A stretch of 14,630 nt of DNA from a virus, in UHGV virus genome UHGV-0081264. One strand, 5' to 3'. Below are positions 1-11,576 of the stretch, piece by piece; position 1 is the first letter of the stretch, and every line of letters begins with the position of its first letter. The notes under the pieces are model-generated. The model did no database searches. It was given only the letters and a program-made list of their open reading frames with translations, and was not told where the DNA came from. The position numbers and the translations under genes are program-made.

Positions 1-1025
1 TCCTTCCTTTTCAGCCACTCGTCACGTTTCTGTCGGCACTCGTCCAACGTGGGCTTTACGCAGGAGAAAAGTTCTCCGTCCGTGTGTCGGTAGTCATATT
101 GGAAAAGGGTTGTTTTTTTGCGTCTGTCGAGTGCTTCGCGCATCACGCCGAGCGCATCGGTATTGTTAACAAGTTCATCCGCCAGTCCGTTATCCAAAGA
201 CTCCTGGCCGGAGAATACTGCCGCTTCGGTGTCCAGCACGTCCTGAACAGACATGCCGGTATAAGCGGAAACCTTTTCGGCAAACATCTGACGAGTGGCA
301 TCGATACGCGTCTGGAAATCAGCACGCACATCTTTCGGAAGCTTTTCGTAAGGGTTGCCGTCGACCTTGCGATCGCCGCTGTAAATCAGCGTGACCTCAA
401 CGCCGTTAGTTTTGAGCGCAGCGCCATAGTTGCTGTGCGCCATCATGACCCCAATGGAGCCGGTTCTGGCCGTTTGTGTGACCAGCCGTCGCGATGCCGA
501 ACTGGCTATAAGCTGCCCTGCACTGCAGTTCATGTCATTGGCCAGCGCCCAGATGGGTTTGATATCGCGCATACGGGCTATAATGTCGGCGCAGTCAAAC
601 GCCCCGGACACCATTCCACCCGGCGTATCCATATCCAGAAGAATGCCGTCAACGCCGGGGTCACTGATTGCCTGCTGCAGGCGAGCAATGATCCCGTTGT
701 AACCCGTCATGCCGGAATAAGGCTGAAGCGCACGGGTTTTACTGACCAGCGTGCCGGAAACCGGCAAGACCGCGATACCATTTGCCACCTGATAGCTGCG
801 TGATGGACGGGGATCCATGTCATCATCCTCACCAAACAGCGCCAGCGGTTCGGCTATTTGTCCGGCATCAAGCGTGATGCCAGAGACGGTATCTGTCAGC
901 CGGGTGATGCCCAACTGGCCAGCCAGCGCGCAAAAGAAAACCCGCGCATAGGCGGGTTCAAGCATCAGCGGCTCATTAAAGGCCATACTGGCAATATGCG
1001 GAAGATTACGCAGCTCGTGCGCCAT
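1..1025 (-). CDS. C: Head maturation protease / scaffold, lambda gpC-like (S49/ClpP fold); 3' end runs off the window
   Basis: Minus-strand ATG at 1025..1023 (hand translation) gives [39 protein letters not shown]..., matching the lambda gpC N-terminus as I recall it. The frame stays open to the window edge, which is why the ORF track does not list it. Start overlaps the portal stop by about 20 nt, as in lambda B/C. Confidence 0.85.
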   Translation of the reverse strand, partial: MAHELRNLPHIASMAFNEPLMLEPAYARVFFCALAGQLGITRLTDTVSGITLDAGQIAEPLALFGEDDDMDPRPSRSYQVANGIAVLPVSGTLVSKTRALQPYSGMTGYNGIIARLQQAISDPGVDGILLDMDTPGGMVSGAFDCADIIARMRDIKPIWALANDMNCSAGQLIASSASRRLVTQTARTGSIGVMMAHSNYGAALKTNGVEVTLIYSGDRKVDGNPYEKLPKDVRADFQTRIDATRQMFAEKVSAYTGMSVQDVLDTEAAVFSGQESLDNGLADELVNNTDALGVMREALDRRKKTTLFQYDYRHTDGELFSCVKPTLDECRQKRDEWLKRK

Positions 1026-2598
1026 CTTGCTCCTCCTCGTTTGATTTTTTCACTCCGGCCTCAAAAGCTGCAGCGGCCCATGCCGGTGGTTTCAGACCCG
1101 CAGCACGACGCTCCATGGTTTCCCGGACCTGCTGGGCAAAAATCTCCTGATAATCATCACCGCGTTTGGCGCACTCTTTTTCATACGTGCTGAGACCTGC
1201 CTCAATGAGCATGACGGCCTCCTGTACCTCTTTCAGCCCGTCAATTGCCATTCGACCAGAGCCAATCCAGTTGGCATTCCCCCAGGCTGTTCTCGCCTCC
1301 TGGAAACTGAACCGGGCTTTCGAAGGAAGCGTGACCACGCGGCGGACAATCGCCTCTTCAAGCCAGCAAAGAAACATCTGACAGGCCTGTCGGGATGCCA
1401 CAAACTTGCGACGCCCCATAAAGTACGCCCAGGACTCGTTAGCACTTGCGCGTGCGGTCGAGTAGCTCATCTGCGAATAGTTTCGCGAAAGCTGCTCATA
1501 CGACACACCAAGCCCAGCGGCAATATAACGCAGCAGGGACTGTTCAAAAGTCGAGTAGCCGTTATCGGTATCCTGCGCCGACTGAAGGTTGAGAGAATCA
1601 CCCGGCAACAGGTGTGGAACCCTTGCCCCACCCAGGCGAACAGGCGCAGCTGAGTAATAGGACGCCATTTCACCGAGCCAGCCCGTAAGTTTGCTCTGCT
1701 GCTCTTTATTATCCGCGCCGAGAATAAAGTCCATCGCCGATTGGGTATCCAGTTCACTCTCGATGGTAGCGGCATACATAGCCTTCACTATCGCGCTCTG
1801 GAGCTGGGTATTTTGCAGGGTATCGAGCATTTTCATCTGCTCCATCACGCTGTAAAACGCATTGGCCCCACGGGTCTGTCCATCCTCCATCGGTTCGAAT
1901 ACATGGATAAATGAAGGTCGACCGCCGGGTAGTTCGCGAGGAATGTAGGTCCAGTTCTGCGCCATCCAGCCGGGATAACCATCGTCGCTGACGTAATATC
2001 CCAGCGCAGCACCGCTATCATTTATTTTCACACCGGCGCGACAGTTCCGGGTATCACCGATATTATTCGGATTGCTGACGCGCTTCGGACTGACCATTTT
2101 GAACTGAGTACGGAAAAGACGCGTTGAATCGCTGTCCCAGGTCGCCTGCGTGCATAATTCACCGTTAAACGCGTGCATGGCCACACCTTCTCGGATCATC
2201 ATCGTAAACGTTCGCTTACGCTCGGCATCAATCCCGCAAAAGTCGTCCTCGGCATACTCATTCCATGCAGCTTCCACATCCCGCGAGAATGCCCGTGAAT
2301 CCTCCTCATTTATTCCCAGATAACGCCAGCTTGGTCGATAACTGAGTCTGAAAAATGACCCGACGATGTGGTCCTGGTGGAGCTGCACGGCGTTTGCCGC
2401 GTAGCCATTATTTCGCACCAGATCGTCAGCGCGGGCATTTCCGCGAGAATAGTTGGGTAGGAGTGCGGCATCTGCACTTTCACTCGGCGGATTCCAGCCT
2501 CGCAGCTGCCCACCAAACCCGCCTCCACCGCCATGATATCCTGCGTATTCCCGAAGGGATGTTTTCCCGTCAGGTCCCACCAAAGATGGTATTTTCAT
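1006..2598 (-). CDS. B: Portal protein, lambda gpB-like
   Basis: 530-aa ORF with ATG start. [41 protein letters not shown]... and the C-terminus ...[14 protein letters not shown] are near-identical to lambda gpB from memory. Sits between W and C in lambda order. Confidence 0.95.
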
Positions 2599-2801
2599 AC
2601 GTAAAACCCTGCTGGCCCCCGGCGTCGTGATGTGGTGCCAACCTGAGATTCAAGGTCAGCAATATATTTTTTGAGATCGCTGACTGAAGTGGCTGTAAAT
2701 TCCACTCTTCGACCGTCTTTCTGTACCGTCGCCACGCGCTTTCCCATCATCAGGTCATGTAACGCAGCGCGCGCGGCATCCAGTTCAGTCTGTGTTGCCA
2801 T
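2595..2801 (-). CDS. W: Head-tail joining / head completion protein, lambda gpW-like
   Basis: 68-aa ORF, ...[43 protein letters not shown]...[10 protein letters not shown], same length and sequence pattern as lambda gpW. Start overlaps the A stop (TAATG); the 3' end overlaps B by 4 nt. Confidence 0.9.
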
Positions 2802-4723
2802 TATTCATCTCCAGATAATGCCCGCGCGTAATCCGCCAGGGTCTTGTTATTGTTACGGCTGCCTTCTTCCTCCAGCAGGCTGGCCAGAAGTGAATCAAGA
2901 TTTAGCTGCCAGCGGGATATGCTTATACGCAGCGCCGCCAGTGCATAAACAAAGCAATCGAGCGCCTCATTTCGTCGTTTTTTGCTGTCCCAGACGATCT
3001 TTTTCTTTCCGCCTACCCATTTTTCCACCTGCTCTTCAGCTGTTAGTTGTTGGGCCTCTGTTAGATCGTAGATTTCTGGGTTATTCGGGAAATGAACCGC
3101 TCCCGCCAGCGGCTCGTCTCTTTGCGCCACCAGCGTGAAACGGTTATAAATCTGCTCTTTTGCGGTGTCTGTTCCTACCTCTGTGAGGTAAACACCATTC
3201 TTGTTACGCTTGCGTGGCATGTTCGCCACTGGCTTTCCATAAACCGACGCCCCCTTTATAGGGATCACACGAAACAGACCGTGTTTTTTTGAGCGGTTGT
3301 AGACGATGGTGGGATCAATGCCGCCAATATCCCAGCAAGTGCGGGATATAACCATTTCGAGACCGTTCTGGCGCTTATACGTCCTGTTGATCGCTTCATC
3401 AACTCGAGCGAGAGTCGACTCATCATCATGACGACCCATAATGATAATTTTGTCGATAAGCCAGCTTTCCTCTCCCGGCCCCCATCCCCAAACACGCATT
3501 TCGTAACGGTCAAGCTGGGAGTCAATACCCGCTGTCAGATATGCCACTCGCTCCGGCACAGACGCTTCAAAGTGCTCTTTTCGTTCCGCTAAAACTTCAG
3601 CATCGGGTCGTTCACCTATTTTCGGTTCCCACGTTTCGCCCAGGGTCGTGTTAACGAAAGTTTTTCGCTTACCCGTATCACCTTTTGTTTTTATCCAGTC
3701 CTTGACGATCTGCACCCAGGTTGTGAACGGGCTATATGCGGTCCAGATGTGGAATGTAACGCTGTCAGGAGGTTCAATTTCGGTACCGGATGAAGAAAAC
3801 CAGTTAAGGCCGTCTCGTGTCCAGATACCTGTTTCATCACAAATATACCTGGCCTCCAGAAATTCCAGCTCCTGTTGTTTAATCACACAGGCATTGTGTT
3901 CACAGAGGTAGTAAACGCTGGCAGGTTCTCCCGGAGACCATTTGAAGCCAAATGGTGTCTCTTTATCACCGAATTTCAGATACTGCTCTTCCCCACAGTG
4001 TGGGCATGGAACATGGAACCGAAGAAAATGTTCAGACTCCTTAGCAGCTCTTTCTATCTGGCACGTACCTTTGACTTTCGGTGTAGATCCGCGAATGGAT
4101 TTCGGCCATACAGAACCCTCAATACGCTTATCACCCAGAAAGGTGGGAGAACCTTCTTTCTCGATGTCATCATCGAAAGCGGCGAGCTCGTCGTAGCCAG
4201 CCACATCAACTGATTTTTCACGGTAGTTTTTTGCAGCCTTACCGCCCAGGCACCAGAAACCACGACCATTCGAGAAACGCTTCATGCTCAGCGTATTGTC
4301 CCGGTGTTTTTTACCGTACCAGGGAGCAAGCGCCAGCAACGTCGGAATATCACGAATGGTCGGTTCTACATGAGACTTCATGAAGTTTTCAGCATCACCG
4401 TCGGTTGGTAACCATATTAGGGAGTTACGCTGTTTATGTTGGATGAAATATGCGTAAACGCCGAGCAACATTTTTGAGTAGCCGACACGAGCCGATTTAA
4501 CGACATTCACCTCGCGAATATAGTCATTACCCATCGCATTCATAATTGCACGCTGAAATGGCAGTGTTTCCCAGCGCCCTTCCTGGTAGGCAGACTCTTT
4601 CGGGAGATAATAATTCTCATCTGCCCATTCAACTGCTGTTTGCGGTTGCGGCCGGTACAGCGAACGTAACCCCGCCCGCGCAGAGTGCTGCAGCCCCTTA
4701 ACCTGACTGTTCGATATATTCAC
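2801..4723 (-). CDS. A: Terminase large subunit, lambda gpA-like
   Basis: 640-aa ORF with GTG start (GTGAATATATCG..., as I recall for lambda A). MNISNSQV...[36 protein letters not shown]... is collinear with lambda gpA. 5' end overlaps the Nu1 3' end. Confidence 0.95.
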
Positions 4724-5243
4724 TCAGCAACCCCGGTATCATTTCATCCAGCGCAGCTGCCTTGTTCATGGCCTTAATGATGTCCTTCTTGAGGAAATCA
4801 ATATGTCGGTTCTCCAGCTCCGGGAAGCGCCGCTGAACCGACAGAGGTATTCCATCGAGAATGCTGGCGATTTCTCCGGCTACCCGCGACAGCACGAACG
4901 TGCAGAATGCGGTCTCCACCACTTCAGCGGACTCTTTTGCATTTTTTAATTCCTGAGCGTCAGCCTGAGCTCGCGTAAGTCGGTGTCGCTCATATTCAAT
5001 CGTGCCAGGTTGAAGATCGGACTCAGAAGCGATACGGAGATCTTCAACTTCCTTCCGCAACTTTTCATTTTCTATAGCTGCATCGCGCGCACTGTACCAT
5101 TCGATTGCAGCAGCAGATTCAAAGAGAACCTCATTACCTTTGCCACCACCGCGGACAACCGGCATACCTTGCTCCTGCCAGTTCTGAATCGTTCGGACGC
5201 TTACCCCGAAAATTTCGGATAAGCGTTTTTTGTTAACCTCCAT
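4698..5243 (-). CDS. Nu1: Terminase small subunit, lambda Nu1-like
   Basis: 181-aa ORF with ATG start. MEVNKKRLSEIFGVSVRTIQNWQEQGMPV... carries the Nu1 winged-HTH N-terminus. Lies immediately downstream of cos on the minus strand. Confidence 0.95.
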   Translation of the reverse strand: MEVNKKRLSEIFGVSVRTIQNWQEQGMPVVRGGGKGNEVLFESAAAIEWYSARDAAIENEKLRKEVEDLRIASESDLQPGTIEYERHRLTRAQADAQELKNAKESAEVVETAFCTFVLSRVAGEIASILDGIPLSVQRRFPELENRHIDFLKKDIIKAMNKAAALDEMIPGLLSEYIEQSG

Positions 5244-5531: not shown

Positions 5532-5999
5532 TCATCGCGACAGCGCTGACCATATCGTGCCACCTGGCCGAAGACTCTTCTTCAGTTCCTCGGACACAAC
5601 ATCTGAGATCGCTTTTACCATTTCAGGGGATAGCTTCACGCCGGTCTTAATTTCGGGACAGATGCCAACATTGATGGCATAGCCTTTTCGTGGGTCGTTC
5701 TCTATCCGGCCAAACTGAATATTTACAGAGCCACCAATATAACCACCAGCAGGAACACCAAAGCGCGTATTCACCAGGTGCTTAATGGCGAACTCCTGCC
5801 CTTCAGCGGTCAGGAAGGTGTAATAATTTTCCTTTTGATACTCCGTCGCGGTATGGCGTGTTTCAGCGAATCCCAGCTCTAGAAGCTCAGCAGCACCAGA
5901 TTTGGCTGGCAGATCACCAGACTGAAGCGCGCCACGGAAAAACAGCGCATACAGAACATCCGTCGCCGCGCCGGACAACGTGATAATTTTATGACCCAT
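5532..5999 (-). CDS. Hypothetical protein, 155 aa, cos-proximal accessory gene
   Basis: ATG start with an AAGGAA Shine-Dalgarno about 9 nt upstream. A 3' hairpin (5514..5529) follows 3 nt after the stop. I do not recognise the protein. Confidence 0.6.
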   Translation of the reverse strand: MGHKIITLSGAATDVLYALFFRGALQSGDLPAKSGAAELLELGFAETRHTATEYQKENYYTFLTAEGQEFAIKHLVNTRFGVPAGGYIGGSVNIQFGRIENDPRKGYAINVGICPEIKTGVKLSPEMVKAISDVVSEELKKSLRPGGTIWSALSR

Positions 6000-7019: not shown

Positions 7020-7748
7020 TCAGGCCGCCGCATAGAGCAATTTCATCTGCCCTTTCACCGGGAATGCCGACATGCAACGCGCTTCGAAATCACGATAATC
7101 AGAGCACCCATTGGCAATGCTGGTAACGGCAATGATCTGTCGCTCAACCAATGTCAGCGCGTCAGGTTTAAGGTGCTGATGGATTTTGTCTCCCGCAGCC
7201 AGCCGTCTTTTAACCTCTGCATATACTTCTGGTGGTAATACCTGGCCATATACCCACTTGGCACTGATCATCCCAAATAGTGCGGGGCGACGACCTGGTC
7301 GATGACGGGGCAGCCCTGACATTTTGAACATCGCAGAATAAAACGGATCGCTAAACCTCTTTTCCCATGGCTGAGATTTATCCAGAAGGAAAATAGCCTT
7401 TATTCTTTCATCGTCGATATGATGAACGGAACCCTGAATGATTGCGTCAATTTGCTCATCACACCAGATCTCAAAATCTACAGAAAGCCATCGAGCAAAT
7501 CTGACCGCCAGCTTTGGGTGAAGCCATGTTCCGCCGCCACGGTCTTTGCGAGCGCGGCTGGTTTTTACATATGTGATATTCCCATATCTACTCTTTAACG
7601 CCTCGATGTAACGGACAGTCTCAGGAAGCCTAAGCCACTGAGCCGGCTCCTTGTTGAACTTGTCAGCTGCCGCAGTCGCGTCAAACCAGCCATCGTCAGA
7701 AAAACGCATGGGATGGCCTTCGAAATCAATCGGGATGATATTGGACAT
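7020..7748 (-). CDS. KilA-N domain protein
   Basis: Likely start ATG at 7748 (MSNIIPIDFEGHPMRF...) with AAGGT about 7 nt upstream; the track extends to a GTG at 7823. The GGTWLHPKLAVRFARWLSVDFEIWCDEQI segment fits the KilA-N/APSES-type motif as I recall it. Confidence 0.7.
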   Translation of the reverse strand: MSNIIPIDFEGHPMRFSDDGWFDATAAADKFNKEPAQWLRLPETVRYIEALKSRYGNITYVKTSRARKDRGGGTWLHPKLAVRFARWLSVDFEIWCDEQIDAIIQGSVHHIDDERIKAIFLLDKSQPWEKRFSDPFYSAMFKMSGLPRHRPGRRPALFGMISAKWVYGQVLPPEVYAEVKRRLAAGDKIHQHLKPDALTLVERQIIAVTSIANGCSDYRDFEARCMSAFPVKGQMKLLYAAA

Positions 7749-7897
7749 CGTATTTACCTTTTTGGTGATATGAGCCAGTTCTCGCAGACATGGACAGCCC
7801 AAGAGCGGCACGATGTAAGCCACCGTCCTGTCTCTGTCTCATATCCCGAAAAGCTCTTGGTTGATATGCGCACGAGAATGCGCGGTTTACTGCGGAC

Positions 7898-7924
7898 ATA
7901 AAAAAGCCCCGCATAGGCGAGGCT
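7898..7924 (-). terminator. Intrinsic terminator (minus strand) just after the peptidase stop
   Basis: Minus-strand AGCCUCGCC-uaug-GCGGGGCU stem (one U·G wobble) followed by UUUUUUAUG. Confidence 0.6.
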
Positions 7925-7942
7925 GGAATCAGACAGGGGGGA

Positions 7943-8845
7943 TTAAGACTGGATATTCCAAATCATTGCGTTACCGTTATGATTTTCAATGATTTTTGCC
8001 AGTGGTGCTCCACCAAAAGAATGCATGTAGCTGTGATGTATAGTCAAAACCAAATCTTGAAGTACTTGATCACTTTCAAGTTCGGTAACATTCAACCCAA
8101 TTTTCTGCGCCTTATCAAAATGAATATGACGCGAGTGGGTATAGGTTGTGTGATGGTTGTTTAACTCTGAACAAACATGTGTTGCTTTTGATTCTGCCTC
8201 AGGATCATTATCAAACATGCCTGTCATAAGCCAATGCTTAACAATCTCATTTGCCCATTTGATTGCTTTCTCACACTCGCCGATGATCGTCGGGTTTAGC
8301 TTTTGAAGAATGAACTGCCACATCTGAACAGCTGCGGGATTTTGAAAAATTTCCGTCTGCGCACGATTCCATTCTTCAATGATGGCATGGGTGGAGAAAC
8401 CGTTGAACTGAGGATCAATTGGGCCAATGTTGGACTGTTTACCCATGATGATTTCATTGGCACAACATGCAAGCATAGTTCCGCAGGACATTGAAATCAT
8501 AGGAACAATTGCTCTGATGTTAGTTCCAAACTTCGACCTTAAGTAATGCCCGATTGATTCCAAAGCGGCAATATCACCACCTGGAGTATGAAGTATCAAA
8601 TCCAACCCTTTTGATACATCTAAACCATTGATGGCTGTCATCAACCCGTTCTTATCATCATCAGTCATCTGAGTAAGATGGCGTACTTCTGCACCACCAT
8701 GCTGTAACCACCCTGAGTAATATGTGATTACATTTCTTCCAGTATGATTCGAAAGTTGAGATAAGTATTTACGGCGAACCTCATCCATAGGACTTTTATG
8801 GGCGAGAGCCGTTATCTCGCCCAGTACGTCGCTCCAATTAGGCAT
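7943..8845 (-). CDS. ClpP/S49-fold serine peptidase, SDH-family-like, 300 aa
   Basis: ATG start 3 nt after the upstream ORF's stop (coupled). LILHTPGGDIAALESIG resembles the ClpP/SppA oxyanion-loop motif, and PMISMSCGTMLA resembles the nucleophile region. AT-rich relative to the head genes. Confidence 0.7.
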   Translation of the reverse strand: MPNWSDVLGEITALAHKSPMDEVRRKYLSQLSNHTGRNVITYYSGWLQHGGAEVRHLTQMTDDDKNGLMTAINGLDVSKGLDLILHTPGGDIAALESIGHYLRSKFGTNIRAIVPMISMSCGTMLACCANEIIMGKQSNIGPIDPQFNGFSTHAIIEEWNRAQTEIFQNPAAVQMWQFILQKLNPTIIGECEKAIKWANEIVKHWLMTGMFDNDPEAESKATHVCSELNNHHTTYTHSRHIHFDKAQKIGLNVTELESDQVLQDLVLTIHHSYMHSFGGAPLAKIIENHNGNAMIWNIQS

Positions 8846-8848
8846 AAA

Positions 8849-9049
8849 TCAGTACGTGTAAAGTTGATGACTTGTAGTTTGGTTTTGCTTCGATTGTGTA
8901 GCGGTACCTTGTGAGTACCAAACACCTGTGTTTCCACTCGTACTAGTTTGCTGTGCCATTACACGAGAAGCGAAGTTGTTAACAGTTTCACCAGTCAACA
9001 TTTCTGCCGGTTTGATATTGTAAACATCGTAGAACTCAGCTGGGGTCAT
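8849..9049 (-). CDS. Hypothetical small protein, 66 aa, first gene of the peptidase operon
   Basis: ATG start with GGAG about 8 nt upstream. Ser/Thr/Gln-rich. Its stop is 3 nt before the peptidase ATG. Confidence 0.55.
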   Translation of the reverse strand: MTPAEFYDVYNIKPAEMLTGETVNNFASRVMAQQTSTSGNTGVWYSQGTATQSKQNQTTSHQLYTY

Positions 9050-9073
9050 AATGATAGCTCCTTTTATAGCGCT

Positions 9074-9111
9074 ACATATAGTGCCTGTGCCAAGGGGGAC
9101 ATACTATATGT
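9074..9111. promoter_or_regulatory. Perfect 9-bp inverted repeat ACATATAGT-N20-ACTATATGT in the promoter region of the 66-aa/peptidase operon
   Basis: Arms at 9074..9082 and 9103..9111 are exact reverse complements. Located 25–60 nt upstream of the 66-aa ORF start and overlapping TATAGT/TATATG -10-like hexamers. Confidence 0.45.
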
Positions 9112-9135
9112 GCCATTGTTGTCATATTTAAATGT

Positions 9136-9160
9136 GCAAAAAGCCTCAAAAGAGGCTTGA
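9136..9160 (-). terminator. Intrinsic terminator (minus strand) downstream of the lysis cassette
   Basis: Minus-strand AAGCCUC-uuuu-GAGGCUU hairpin followed by UUUG. Confidence 0.55.
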
Positions 9161-9419
9161 AAAAGATGCAAAAATACTATCTATGACGTGACTATAGCTA
9201 CTTACCCACAGTTTATACAAGCCAAAAATGCTAAATTCAGATAATCCTATTCGCTGAAAAACTACACAAAAGCTACGTTCATCTTGTCATTAGATAACGT
9301 CAGTAACTTTCACTGGATCTAAGCCATTGGTGAAAAAGCTAATTGCATGATGAAGCACTGTAATGTAGCAGTTGAGGTTGTTAAATGAGAATCACCCTAA
9401 CAATGTCAACGGACATTAT

Positions 9420-9956
9420 TCATTTTCGTAACTTCTCAATCTCTCGTATACCCGCCAGGTTATTGTTGCCCTTCTCAATAACAGCCAGCAAAGGTTCAAT
9501 CCAGAGGACGGCCTGGCAATACGTCATTGAGCTGGCGGCAGCGGTACTATCATCGGTTGCGTTAGTGTTCCCGGTATCGGGGTGCATTGCGCTGGCACGT
9601 AAACGGTACGCGTATTTGAGCAGCCCACCAGCGACATCAGCAGGAACAGGCAGATCACAGGTCTTTTCACGTCGGAGAATCTCCCGGTATTCGATGACAG
9701 TTTTCTCAGTACCGGCATCGATCAGCGAGTTAAGGCGGTTGGCGTTCTCTGCTATCTGGTTAAACCGATTGAAGTTGAAAGCCTGTGTAGTTATCACCGT
9801 CGCCTGCAGCGCGTTATCATTACGTAATACCCGATTCTCACTCTGTTCTGTTTCAAGAGCTGAGCGGCTACGAACCAGTAATACGCTAAGCACTGCAATA
9901 ATGATTACGACAGCCACCAGCAGAACCGCAACAATCGTAATTTTTCTGGGTTTCAT
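9420..9956 (-). CDS. Rz: i-spanin (Rz-like)
   Basis: ATG start overlapping the endolysin stop (TGATG). N-terminal transmembrane segment (KITIVAVLLVAVVIIIAVLSVLLV), then a charged, helix-rich periplasmic domain. An o-spanin ORF is embedded in the +1 frame. Confidence 0.8.
   Translation of the reverse strand: MKPRKITIVAVLLVAVVIIIAVLSVLLVRSRSALETEQSENRVLRNDNALQATVITTQAFNFNRFNQIAENANRLNSLIDAGTEKTVIEYREILRREKTCDLPVPADVAGGLLKYAYRLRASAMHPDTGNTNATDDSTAAASSMTYCQAVLWIEPLLAVIEKGNNNLAGIREIEKLRK
9524..9718 (-). CDS. Rz1: o-spanin (Rz1-like lipoprotein) embedded within Rz
   Basis: Entirely inside Rz in another frame. Lipobox LVGC followed by a Pro-rich tail (PIPGTLTQPMIVPLPPAQ). The true start may lie downstream of the ATG at 9718. 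Confidence 0.7.
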   Translation of the reverse strand: MPVLRKLSSNTGRFSDVKRPVICLFLLMSLVGCSNTRTVYVPAQCTPIPGTLTQPMIVPLPPAQ

Positions 9957-10528
9957 CAGAATACCCCCGGAACTGATACCGGAATGCCTGGGTTAAGCGG
10001 CCCGAGCCCATCACCAAGAACCTGAGGTTTTTCTGCCCACAGGCAAACTTCACGCTCAATCTCACGCCGGGTAATCAACCCTTTCCATTGCTTACCACCG
10101 GCATATGTCCATCGACGAAGCTGATCACATGCGCCTTTGATATCACCCTGGTTTATTTTGTAGAGAAGAGTGGAGGTTTTGAAATTGCCAGCACCGACGT
10201 TGTAGACAAACGAGTAAAGAGCGCCCCGAGTAGTTTCAGGGATCGGAACCTTGATGTACGGATTAATCTGCTGCGCTACGGTGGTGAGGTCTTTATTAAG
10301 TAACGCTCGACACTCTGCTTTGGTGTAGGTCTTGCCGAGGATAATATCTTTACCAGTATGGCCCCAGCATACAGTCCACACTCCAACAACATCCCGATAA
10401 GGCTGATAGCGTACACCTTCAAGGCCATCATTACCCGTTGGGCCAGTAATCAACGCCGCAGCGATAGCAATAGCGCCAGCGGGTATCGCTGCAATAACGC
10501 TATTCTTCAGCTTTGGTGACATTGCCAT
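9956..10528 (-). CDS. R: SAR endolysin (GH24, T4-type lysozyme fold)
   Basis: ATG start. Gly/Ala-rich weakly hydrophobic N-terminus ([22 protein letters not shown]) typical of a signal-anchor-release domain, followed by the E-x8-D-x5-T catalytic motif ([24 protein letters not shown]). Confidence 0.85.
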
Positions 10529-10778
10529 TAAGCCGGTCCTCCCTTTCCTTTTTCCTGTAATACCAATTCACTGCACAGGTGATTACAGTGCATGCGATAC
10601 CGACAATAATTGCCCAGTCGCTCAGGCTTAACCCTGCAATTCTGTCGGCCAACATCCAGGACACCTCTTTTGCTGTTTTAGCTGTTTCGGCATATGCCTT
10701 CGCTGATACACCGCAGCCGGTCAGCGTGGTTCCTGTTCCATATGAAAGTCTGCTGTAAATGGTGCTCATTCTGGTCAT
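10500..10778 (-). CDS. S: Class II holin, pinholin-like (phage 21 S-like), with dual-start motif
   Basis: Starts MTRMSTIY (Met1 and Met4). Two transmembrane segments; the C-terminal end ...[13 protein letters not shown] parallels S21 ...NLYFKIREDRRK as I recall it. Strong GGAGGTGAGG Shine-Dalgarno. 3' end overlaps the endolysin start. Confidence 0.8.
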
Positions 10779-10888: not shown

Positions 10889-10914
10889 ATAAAAAAGCCC
10901 CGCTATTACGGGGC
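10889..10914 (-). terminator. Intrinsic terminator (minus strand) after the 213-aa ORF
   Basis: Minus-strand GCCCCG-uaauag-CGGGGC hairpin followed by UUUUUUAUUU, about 20 nt after the stop at 10935. Confidence 0.7.
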
Positions 10915-10934
10915 AGTTAATAGAATTATAAAGT

Positions 10935-11576
10935 TTAAAAGTTTAAAGGAACCATAAAGCTACCAGGCTCTGCACCAGCTTCTTTATTTATTTCTTTACG
11001 GATTACCTCATTAATCTGAAAAGCCTCATTGTATACTTTTTCTAAGTTAATTGACGCCTTCATATTATAGTATGTTTTTTCCTCACAAACATATAACCTT
11101 ATCGGATATGGCCTAGGGTTGATTGCCTTCCAGTGGGAGATCACAAAATTATAAACTGCAATACCATGACCTTTCATCTTCCCTGCTGTAACATCAATGT
11201 TTAGCTGATCTAAATACTCATCGAAGTGTTGCAAGGTGTTTCTCACCCTCACGGAATTAATTTCCTTAATTTCAATATCTTTTATTTTTTCTTGAAGGTA
11301 ATTACTTCGCTCAATATGCAATCTGAATTGTTCAGGGGATTCTTCCCTAGTCTGATTTTTAGGAACTGCGATTAGTTTCTTGACGTTAGCCGCATCTGAA
11401 AGAATACTATTTATTAATATATGAATATTGTAATCAATTTTAAAGTAGTAACCAGCATCAGGAAGTGGTGTCTCATGAAAGAGCTCTTCACAGCGTGTTT
11501 TTATCGAATGAGTTAACAACCATAATTCGTGCAAATAAATAAAATTAAGTTTCATTTGCTCAAAGGTTTTTGACAT
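10935..11576 (-). CDS. Hypothetical protein, 213 aa, AT-rich accessory gene between Q and the holin
   Basis: ATG start with GGAG about 9 nt upstream and its own terminator downstream. Strongly AT-rich, with Lys/Ile/Asn/Tyr-rich composition. I do not recognise the protein. Confidence 0.6.
   Translation of the reverse strand: MSKTFEQMKLNFIYLHELWLLTHSIKTRCEELFHETPLPDAGYYFKIDYNIHILINSILSDAANVKKLIAVPKNQTREESPEQFRLHIERSNYLQEKIKDIEIKEINSVRVRNTLQHFDEYLDQLNIDVTAGKMKGHGIAVYNFVISHWKAINPRPYPIRLYVCEEKTYYNMKASINLEKVYNEAFQINEVIRKEINKEAGAEPGSFMVPLNF

Follow-up and report, generated by a model that had tools for sequence, protein, structure and literature searches.

A predicted accessory cassette of a lambda/HK97-like Escherichia coli prophage pairs an SDH-type ClpP-fold protease with a small, apparently obligate partner protein

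Background

Type II toxin-antitoxin (TA) and abortive infection (Abi) morons of temperate phages, such as rexAB of lambda and the morons of HK97, are the described systems closest to the locus reported here, together with ToxIN and the NfeD/STOPP protease 1510-N of Pyrococcus (PH1510/PH1511). Lambda keeps rexAB directly behind cI, and TA and defence modules are usually common on plasmids. The membrane protease 1510-N uses a Ser-Lys dyad, has a large SPFH-domain protein, stomatin, as its partner and reportedly provides a precedent for an operon-encoded substrate of a ClpP-fold protease. Here we describe a two-gene cassette on the minus strand of a 14,630-nucleotide stretch of the virus genome UHGV-0081264 (this whole stretch is referred to as the window, and all coordinates are positions in it unless a locus is named). 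The cassette encodes a 66-aa protein followed by a 300-aa member of Pfam family PF01972, the ClpP-like SDH-type serine proteinases formerly known as DUF114, a sequence family without a demonstrated biological role.

The cassette resembles TA and Abi morons in its two-gene autonomous layout with a predicted promoter and terminator of its own, in the coupling of a small, fast-evolving first gene to a conserved enzyme, in a 5′ inverted repeat and in the rexAB-like position that one copy occupies after cI. It differs from them in having an intrinsic terminator between promoter and genes and in its rarity on plasmids. As in ToxIN, transcription from a conserved promoter would first yield a short leader and has to pass an intrinsic terminator before it reaches the enzyme gene; unlike in ToxIN, the leader is only ~30 nt long and free of repeats, with no sign of an RNA antitoxin, and the conserved second component is a protein. 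In contrast to 1510-N, the window protease is predicted to be soluble; Ser, Asp and His are its candidate catalytic residues, and its C-terminal half is helical. Its partner, ~60 aa long and likewise soluble, has a disordered tail and lies outside the PF01972 and NF047768 profiles.

A first-pass annotation, made from the letters of the window only, had singled out these two genes as an accessory module for which it could name no described system. To our knowledge, no TA or defence family has an SDH/ClpP-fold protease as effector, and the searchable literature contained no paper linking the PF01972/DUF114 family to phages, defence or TA systems (a paper on Tai tail-assembly inhibition was set aside as not relevant, no protease being involved). 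The protease family is best described as named and functionally uncharacterised, and the two-gene system appears to be undescribed, albeit a very recent description may exist.

Results

An apparently active ClpP-fold serine protease of a distinct subfamily

The 300-aa protein (7943..8845, minus strand, ATG at 8845) scored 81.2 bits against PF01972 over residues 22–255 (gathering threshold 31.3, E = 8.4e-23), and RefSeq names it accordingly. A ClpP-like fold and candidate catalytic residues in Ser-Asp-His order, the two hallmarks of the family, were both present. Ser120, within the MSCG motif in which the nucleophile had already been placed from the sequence, aligns with the ClpP nucleophile. 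It was invariant in alignments of 18 and 44 homologues, as were H86 (HTPGG), D144 (IDPQ), H237, R239, H240, H270, H271 and E287; since the catalytic candidates are all preserved, the protein looks like an active enzyme. The family as a whole comprises 350 clusters at 50% identity (E below 1e-30). The score against the NCBIfam equivalog NF047768 (Clp_like_SDH) was 95.9 bits, well under its cutoff of 250, and by this measure the window protease represents a related, distinct subfamily of ~ 300-aa proteins, recognisable by the N-terminal motif MPNW.

Of the earlier designation as a ClpP/S49-fold peptidase, the ClpP fold was borne out and membership of S49 was not, as the SppA model TIGR00706 reached 16 bits against a cutoff of 155. 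Assignment to the ClpP-related head maturation proteases was likewise rejected (NF045542, 20.9 bits against a cutoff of 120; gene located between Rz and KilA-N), the likeness to the head maturation protease profile phrog_53 being weak (E = 6e-5). The enzyme is also distinct from the phage’s own head protease, as had been proposed, given that a gpC-like S49 gene starts at 1025 and that none of the head-protease models comes near its cutoff. Neither a signal peptide nor a membrane segment was predicted, and the protein is taken to be cytoplasmic and soluble, with a helical C-terminal half.

The first residues, M1-P2 of MPNW, were invariant in the 18-sequence alignment, which includes phage homologues of only 37–46% identity, and MPNW was nearly invariant in the 44-sequence alignment, which argues that the start of the 300-aa version is correct and that the 281-aa version called by PGAP is truncated. 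In some genomes RefSeq/PGAP indeed cuts the protease to 281 aa (start at 8788) under the label ‘S49 family peptidase’, and it leaves the gene of the 66-aa partner uncalled in all four E. coli loci inspected (L001, L006, L007 and L008).

A small protein retained beside every protease homologue

The partner gene occupies 8849..9063 on the minus strand including its Shine-Dalgarno (SD) sequence; the open reading frame (ORF) runs over 8849..9049, with ATG at 9049 and the stop codon TGA at 8851..8849. A strong SD, AAGGAG at 9063..9058, precedes the ATG by 8 nt. The protease gene begins 3 nt past the partner stop, so that the coordinates and the 3-nt distance given in the first-pass annotation were confirmed exactly. 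The protease ORF has no SD of its own, which points to translational coupling to the partner by termination-reinitiation. Both ORFs share one reading frame, separated by TGA-TTT, and reading through the stop codon would yield a 368-aa fusion. We rejected such a fusion, as the gap in relatives is 2–14 nt and in most of them not a multiple of three; the shared frame is probably incidental.

Sequence searches gave the 66-aa protein a match to a single family, phrog_25714 (E = 4e-44), a PHROG of unknown function, and no match in Pfam, NCBIfam or PADLOC. Between diverged cassettes, the ratio of non-synonymous to synonymous substitution rates (dN/dS) of the 66-aa ORF was 0.04–0.13 at dS > 1. Taken together, this low ratio, the phrog_25714 match and retention beside every protease homologue argue for a real gene. 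Purifying selection was strong on both genes of the pair. Even close cassettes (96% protein identity) were already saturated at synonymous sites (dS 1.2–1.9).

Pairing was assessed in 129 distinct protease homologues with enough upstream sequence or evaluable flanks, drawn from IMG/VR, from one genome per GTDB species and from exact-protein look-ups. An upstream partner was defined as a same-strand ORF of 40–140 aa ending between −35 and +100 nt from the protease start. Coupled upstream ORFs were present in 116 of 129 homologues, as compared to 22% for shuffled upstream sequence. All 13 apparent exceptions proved to be paired as well, one through an upstream partner with a GTG start and 12 through a partner directly downstream. 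The pair was therefore retained in 129/129 homologues (partner upstream in 117 and downstream in 12; gap −35 to +82 nt), a constant association of adjacent, coupled genes of the kind expected of type II TA systems. By this pattern the small protein appears to be an obligate partner of the protease in either gene order.

In the loci with swapped order (L084, L087, L096, L114, L121, L143, L144, L153, L159, L168, L171 and L175), which belong mostly to a Clostridia/Lachnospiraceae clade, the partner begins 3–30 nt past the protease stop. In the Gordonia phage BeeGee, an unannotated 58-aa ORF (L004, 3825..4001) overlaps by 1 nt the start of gp31, the protease homologue; it bears the family motif in the form V-R-Y-S-T-S, and we therefore regard it as a partner gene that the curated annotation of this actinophage missed.

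Few relatives were recovered when the small protein was used in word-indexed searches (10 and 72 matches), and the partner family was assembled by position beside the protease, not by sequence search. Its members follow a pattern of [DE]-x-[FY]-x-x-[FL]-[GN]-[IL] at the N-terminus, F-A-x-x-F in the centre and [VI]-x-Y-S-x-x-[ST] in the tail. In a profile-profile comparison, 10 enterobacterial and 18 non-enterobacterial partners were matched over 47 columns with 95.4% probability (P = 1.8e-8; P = 0.17 in the reversed control), which suggests that the partners evolve fast yet form one unnamed family. The AlphaFold (AF2) model of the window partner contains helices at residues 3–9 and 23–37 (predicted local distance difference test, pLDDT, 80–88) and a disordered C-terminal tail of 30 residues. 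An invariant Tyr-Ser motif, Y45-S46 (VWYSQGT), lies within this tail, and Y45 was invariant in 46 partner sequences.

The cassette occupies many accessory slots of unrelated phages

Protease homologues were found on 209 IMG/VR contigs and, with one genome per GTDB species, in at least 541 species from nearly all bacterial phyla and Methanosarcinales. All the GTDB homologues were 48–58% identical to the window protease, except for one from Mangrovibacter at 84%. Such conservation between an E. coli prophage copy and those of Firmicutes, Nitrospirae, Planctomycetes and Methanosarcinales (48–58% amino acid identity) is unusually high for a mobile gene. Within E. coli, the cassette was present in 42 of 5426 complete genomes, on at least three lambdoid backbones and always between Rz and the terminase genes. 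It is dispensable, being missing from most related phages.

Elsewhere the position varied widely. Five Enterobacter-type loci carried the cassette in the Q-holin slot, and the copy in one of them (L009) directly follows a promoter-terminator pair resembling PR′-tR′. At prophage ends, it was found beside the integrase gene in Pseudomonas and after tail-fibre genes in Proteus. In Dehalobacter and in the Gordonia phage BeeGee it lies between tail and immunity genes, in the Mu-like Shewanella phage MuM16-1 between the late regulator C and lysis genes, and in Porphyromonas phages within the structural module, beside a HicAB pair. In a Shewanella prophage it immediately follows the CI repressor gene in the same direction. 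No third gene was conserved among 26 diverse genomes; the commonest neighbours were integrases, invertases, DNA methyltransferases and endolysins, along with single cases of BrxL and of a HindIII-type endonuclease. Occasional neighbours such as BrxL, methyltransferases and PDC-S02 are, together with the prophage accessory slots, contextual evidence for a defence function. Judged by its positions, the cassette hops among accessory slots of unrelated temperate phages and is horizontally mobile. A characterised protease family with conserved synteny, which would have spoken for a morphogenetic or housekeeping role, was not what we found: the family is uncharacterised and its position in phages varies.

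A conserved promoter, terminator and inverted repeat precede the gene pair

Phylogenetic footprinting was based on an alignment of 25 distinct, diverged upstream regions (protease identity 61–100%). Element order across these cassettes was fixed: a promoter (P1), an A/T-rich leader, an intrinsic terminator, an inverted repeat and the SD. The Shewanella cassette behind cI displayed this order too.

P1 is a conserved, predicted sigma70-type promoter at 9191..9220 on the minus strand, with a −35 element TTGTAT (9220..9215), an 18-nt spacer and a −10 element TATAGT (9196..9191); relatives have TTGTCA or TTGCAA with TATAGT or TATATT. A promoter scan detected P1 in the relative L009 (TTGTCA-18-TATAGT, 10 of 12 matches) and overlooked the window copy because its −35 element matches at only three of six positions. 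The first-pass annotation had ascribed to the cassette a promoter region of its own. P1 bears this out in general, while the particular site TTTAAA-18-TATAGT (9132..9103), between terminator and palindrome, was rejected, since it occurs in the window and is not conserved in relatives. With P1 at 9191..9220, the cassette reaches at least to about 9250, past the boundary of 9160 within the span 7898..9160 previously drawn for it.

The P1 spacer holds a DnaA-box-like element, TGTGGGTAA, at 9210..9202 on the minus strand, which differs at a single position from TGTGNATAA (TTATNCACA as read on the complementary strand). A perfect DnaA box, TGTGGATAA, occupies the same place in four diverged lineages (L098, L045, L054 and L056), with a chance expectation of ~ 0.001 per sequence. 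The element could reflect DnaA-dependent control or mere shared ancestry. By eye, the P1 region at 9191..9225 of the minus strand (TTGTATAAACTGTGGGTAAGTA) also resembles, at ~ 16 of 22 positions, the Q-binding/qut site of a lambda-type PR′ (TTGAATAAAGTTGGGTAAATT, mEp235, L005 3671..3699). P1 is kept whatever the type of the resident Q, and for this reason its interpretation as a qut-like late promoter was set aside.

Downstream of P1, the A/T-rich leader of ~ 30 nt and the terminator hairpin together span 9136..9190 (minus strand; stem 9158..9152/9147..9141, T-run to 9138). The hairpin at 9141..9158 with its T5 run folds at −10.8 kcal/mol (z = −3.6). Hairpin and U-run are retained in relatives with different stems (AAGCCTC/GAGGCTT, GACCTCC/GGAGGTT and GGGCTCC/GGGGCTC); a scan also detected this terminator in L044, and it is present in the Shewanella copy after cI. 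As P1 lies upstream of it, the element at 9136..9160 that had been taken for an upstream terminator falls within the transcription unit. The prediction of a terminator on each side of the cassette hence stands in so far as both hairpins fold; the upstream one appears to be internal and does not insulate the cassette from Rz transcription, and the downstream one belongs to the phage backbone (see below). The hairpin at 9141..9158 may act as an attenuator within this unit, or else it may form the 3′ terminus of a leader RNA of ~ 50 nt.

The inverted repeat occupies 9072..9113 on the minus strand, with 11-nt arms GCACATATAGT (9113..9103) and ACTATATGTAG (9082..9072) around a spacer of 19–20 nt that is free in sequence. 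The palindrome noticed in the first-pass annotation corresponds to its 9-nt perfect arms (9103..9111 and 9074..9082), and compensatory changes in the 25 diverged cassettes indicate that it is real. Pairing was preserved in 89% of cells across the 25 sequences, with shifted registers performing far worse. Two positions showed compensatory changes (AU/GC/CG and CG/UA), and the covariation score was reached by none of 500 shuffles. Treatment of each arm as a palindromic operator of its own was rejected, since variable positions are complementary between arms and not within them. G:T outnumbered A:C (17 vs 7), which hints at an RNA hairpin, and the constant 19–20-nt spacer hints at a protein-binding DNA site; the repeat could be either an operator or a hairpin of the 5′ untranslated region. 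Rfam yielded nothing at the gathering threshold for the 5′ region, only chance-level matches by E-value.

Pseudomonas-type cassettes (L014, L063, L073 and L075) are without the enterobacterial promoter-terminator-repeat leader. In its place, the SD is immediately preceded by a conserved palindrome of short length, CGTAYGGAYACG, ~ 20–40 nt upstream of the small ORF, and their partner-protease gap is 52–58 nt.

Setting of the cassette in a lambda/HK97-like prophage

The window forms part of a lambda/HK97-like E. coli prophage and shows 100% identity to strain MB06022. Phage genes all lie on the minus strand, in the order antiterminator Q, holin (10500..10778), lysozyme (9956..10528), Rz-like spanin (9420..9956), the cassette, a KilA-N/P63C protein (7020..7823) with small hypothetical genes next to it, the terminase genes Nu1 (4698..5243) and large terminase (2801..4723), W, portal (1006..2598) and, beside the portal gene, the gene of the gpC-like S49 head protease, which begins at 1025 and continues beyond the window. 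The cassette thus sits between Rz and the KilA-N and terminase genes, in a block whose AT-richness had been noted earlier and was confirmed here (GC content 0.37–0.43 over 7800..9600 vs 0.49–0.53 in the flanks).

A DNA-level search of INPHARED found the cassette in no sequenced phage. The sole match was a segment of 125 nt that includes the downstream terminator and is shared with HK97, HK022, mEp235 and relatives. In mEp235, an annotated rho-independent terminator stands directly 3′ of Rz with nothing inserted between them; other HK97-type phages likewise have no insert, and homology of the window to them begins at the terminator. Because Rz directly adjoins this terminator in mEp235, the cassette can be read as an insertion between Rz and the backbone terminator, in agreement with the earlier view of the Rz–cos gap as a cargo slot.

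The downstream intrinsic terminator (7898..7924, minus strand) is of the HK97/HK022/mEp235 type and marks the downstream junction of the cassette. Its hairpin at 7905..7924, followed by a T6 run, has a folding energy of −13.5 kcal/mol (z = −2.8), and in alignment the homology among three E. coli prophage backbones stops just past the T-run. These alignments indicate that it is the post-Rz terminator of an HK97-like backbone, not a cassette-specific element. On the other side, the AT-rich stretch that separates P1 from the Rz stop at 9420 (9221..9419, minus strand) accompanies the cassette in each of the three E. coli backbones compared; identity upstream of P1 was 100% across these different backbones and ran on into the 3′ end of Rz. 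Insertion between genes that are adjacent in related phages, a predicted promoter and terminator of its own and a deviant base composition are the features by which morons are recognised, and on these grounds we classify the region as a predicted autonomous moron, that is, accessory cargo with its own expression signals, of a lambda/HK97-like E. coli prophage, located between Rz and cos.

A second AT-rich cassette (GC content 0.33–0.38) was identified between Q and holin. It consists of a 213-aa ORF (10935..11576, minus strand) that has the strong SD AAGGAG and a terminator of its own, a hairpin plus T-run at about 10890..10915. The protein had no match in Pfam, PHROG or NCBIfam and only a weak CasR-like match in PADLOC (E = 0.007); at this site RefSeq annotates an opposite-strand 137-aa ORF instead (11029..11439, plus strand). 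Between KilA-N and cos, a 155-aa ORF (5532..5999, minus strand) matches only positions 132–285 of the 335-position phrog_16910, whereas the first 81 residues of its product correspond to the beginning of phrog_17079, so that the gene may be chimeric or truncated.

Discussion

The leading hypothesis for the cassette is a TA-like exclusion or abortive infection function in which a substrate-like partner restrains the protease; we put its probability at roughly 0.4. Under this hypothesis, the helices of the partner would bind an exosite of the protease and its Tyr-Ser strand would lie in the substrate groove; as a cognate substrate or pseudo-substrate, the partner would restrain the enzyme as an antitoxin restrains a toxin. 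Binding of a peptide in this manner would recall SppA, which was crystallised with C-termini bound in its active sites (PDB 4kwb description). In the lysogen, low-level transcription from P1 through a leaky internal terminator would keep a poised complex. An infecting phage might then disturb synthesis or stability of the partner, or bring a competing substrate, and the protease so freed would cleave a phage or host protein and block the infection. Once the resident prophage is induced, late transcription antiterminated by Q would pass both terminators, and expression would rise. By analogy, the slots of the cassette match those typical of lysogen-expressed exclusion genes, of which the position of rexAB after CI is an example.

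Several observations weigh against this hypothesis. PADLOC-DB v2.0.0 (2023 release, newer catalogues being outside its scope) returned no family at E ≤ 0.1 for either protein. Plasmids are nearly free of the module, with a homologue in 4 of 72,556 records. The partner has no recognisable DNA-binding fold (no helix-turn-helix or ribbon-helix-helix match and only two predicted helices), and the protease is conserved to an extent unusual for an immune effector, at 50–58% identity from E. coli to Firmicutes and archaea. Lastly, all slots observed in phages are co-oriented with late or structural operons, and a role in the lytic cycle is therefore equally compatible with the positions of the cassette.

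Such a role would make the pair a helper expressed mainly late, by Q-antiterminated read-through, which might, for example, degrade a host defence or stress protein or condition the cell before lysis, with the partner as adaptor or timer. We consider it the main rival, albeit unlikely overall. It draws on the fact that the late operon surrounds the cassette, in the same orientation, in the window as well as in the Q-holin slot, on the MuM16-1 copy between late regulator C and lysis genes and on the Porphyromonas copies inside the structural module. The internal terminator would hold P1-driven expression low and a Q-modified polymerase would ignore both terminators; phages and prophages are favoured over plasmids (209 IMG/VR contigs vs 4 plasmids), and high conservation of the protease would suit a conserved host target. 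A late-only gene, however, would hardly need a strong conserved promoter of its own, such as P1 is predicted to be, nor does this role sit well with copies behind CI, beside integrase genes at prophage ends and in genomic islands without obvious late operons, or with absence of the cassette from most related phages. That same patchy, horizontally transferred distribution would fit a pure addiction module, in which a TA-like pair stabilises the prophage or island by post-segregational killing with no anti-phage role. Its layout is canonical for TA systems, with a small, fast-evolving and partly disordered first gene coupled to a conserved enzyme and an inverted repeat in the 5′ region, and the swapped gene order of one clade has parallels in some TA families. 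Against it stand the near absence from plasmids, where addiction modules thrive, and the missing DNA-binding domain of the partner, which together leave pure addiction rather improbable.

If the inverted repeat is instead a regulatory site, as its covariation with cassette type and its fixed 19–20-nt spacer would allow, the small protein could be a regulator, perhaps one that binds this repeat or a phage or host factor, and its signal-triggered destruction by the protease, as known from ImmA/ImmR and CapP/CapH, would tune the prophage. The DnaA-box-like element in the P1 spacer and the vicinity of cI in Shewanella would fit such a switch. Yet no downstream effector or neighbouring gene to be regulated is conserved, a terminator follows the module, its position relative to immunity genes varies, and the CI beside the Shewanella cassette already has an S24 autopeptidase domain; we rate proteolytic switching as a little less probable still than addiction. 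A morphogenetic or housekeeping role, whether as a second head-maturation enzyme or as a signal-peptide peptidase, is essentially excluded. The fold is shared with lambda gpC/SppA-type enzymes and profile likeness exists at a low level (phrog_53 at E = 6e-5, NF045542 at 21 bits), but scores lie far under the family cutoffs of 120 and 155 bits and no signal peptide or membrane segment is present. The phage, moreover, already encodes a gpC-like S49 protease next to its portal, and the cassette is missing from close relatives and sits in non-structural slots.

Beyond the exclusion hypothesis as such, a broader proposal can be put forward tentatively, and we regard it as rather doubtful in its entirety: the cassettes might constitute an unrecognised pan-prokaryotic, mainly phage-borne immune or TA-like system with an SDH-type ClpP-fold effector, a fast-evolving pseudo-substrate that restrains it through an invariant Tyr-Ser strand in the active site, and a conserved promoter-attenuator-repeat leader that sets expression, possibly sensing DnaA. 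Whatever the function, the annotation errors, the conserved leader architecture and the high cross-domain conservation of a mobile phage gene merit record, and the constant presence of so small an unannotated protein beside the protease singles it out as a candidate substrate or inhibitor with a candidate cleavage motif. Should an exclusion or TA-like function prove correct, an ATP-independent ClpP-fold protease would be added to prophage-encoded immunity as an effector class, and the large orphan family PF01972, present in at least 541 species including archaea, would gain a function. If true, this would be the first defence or TA family built on a ClpP-fold protease.

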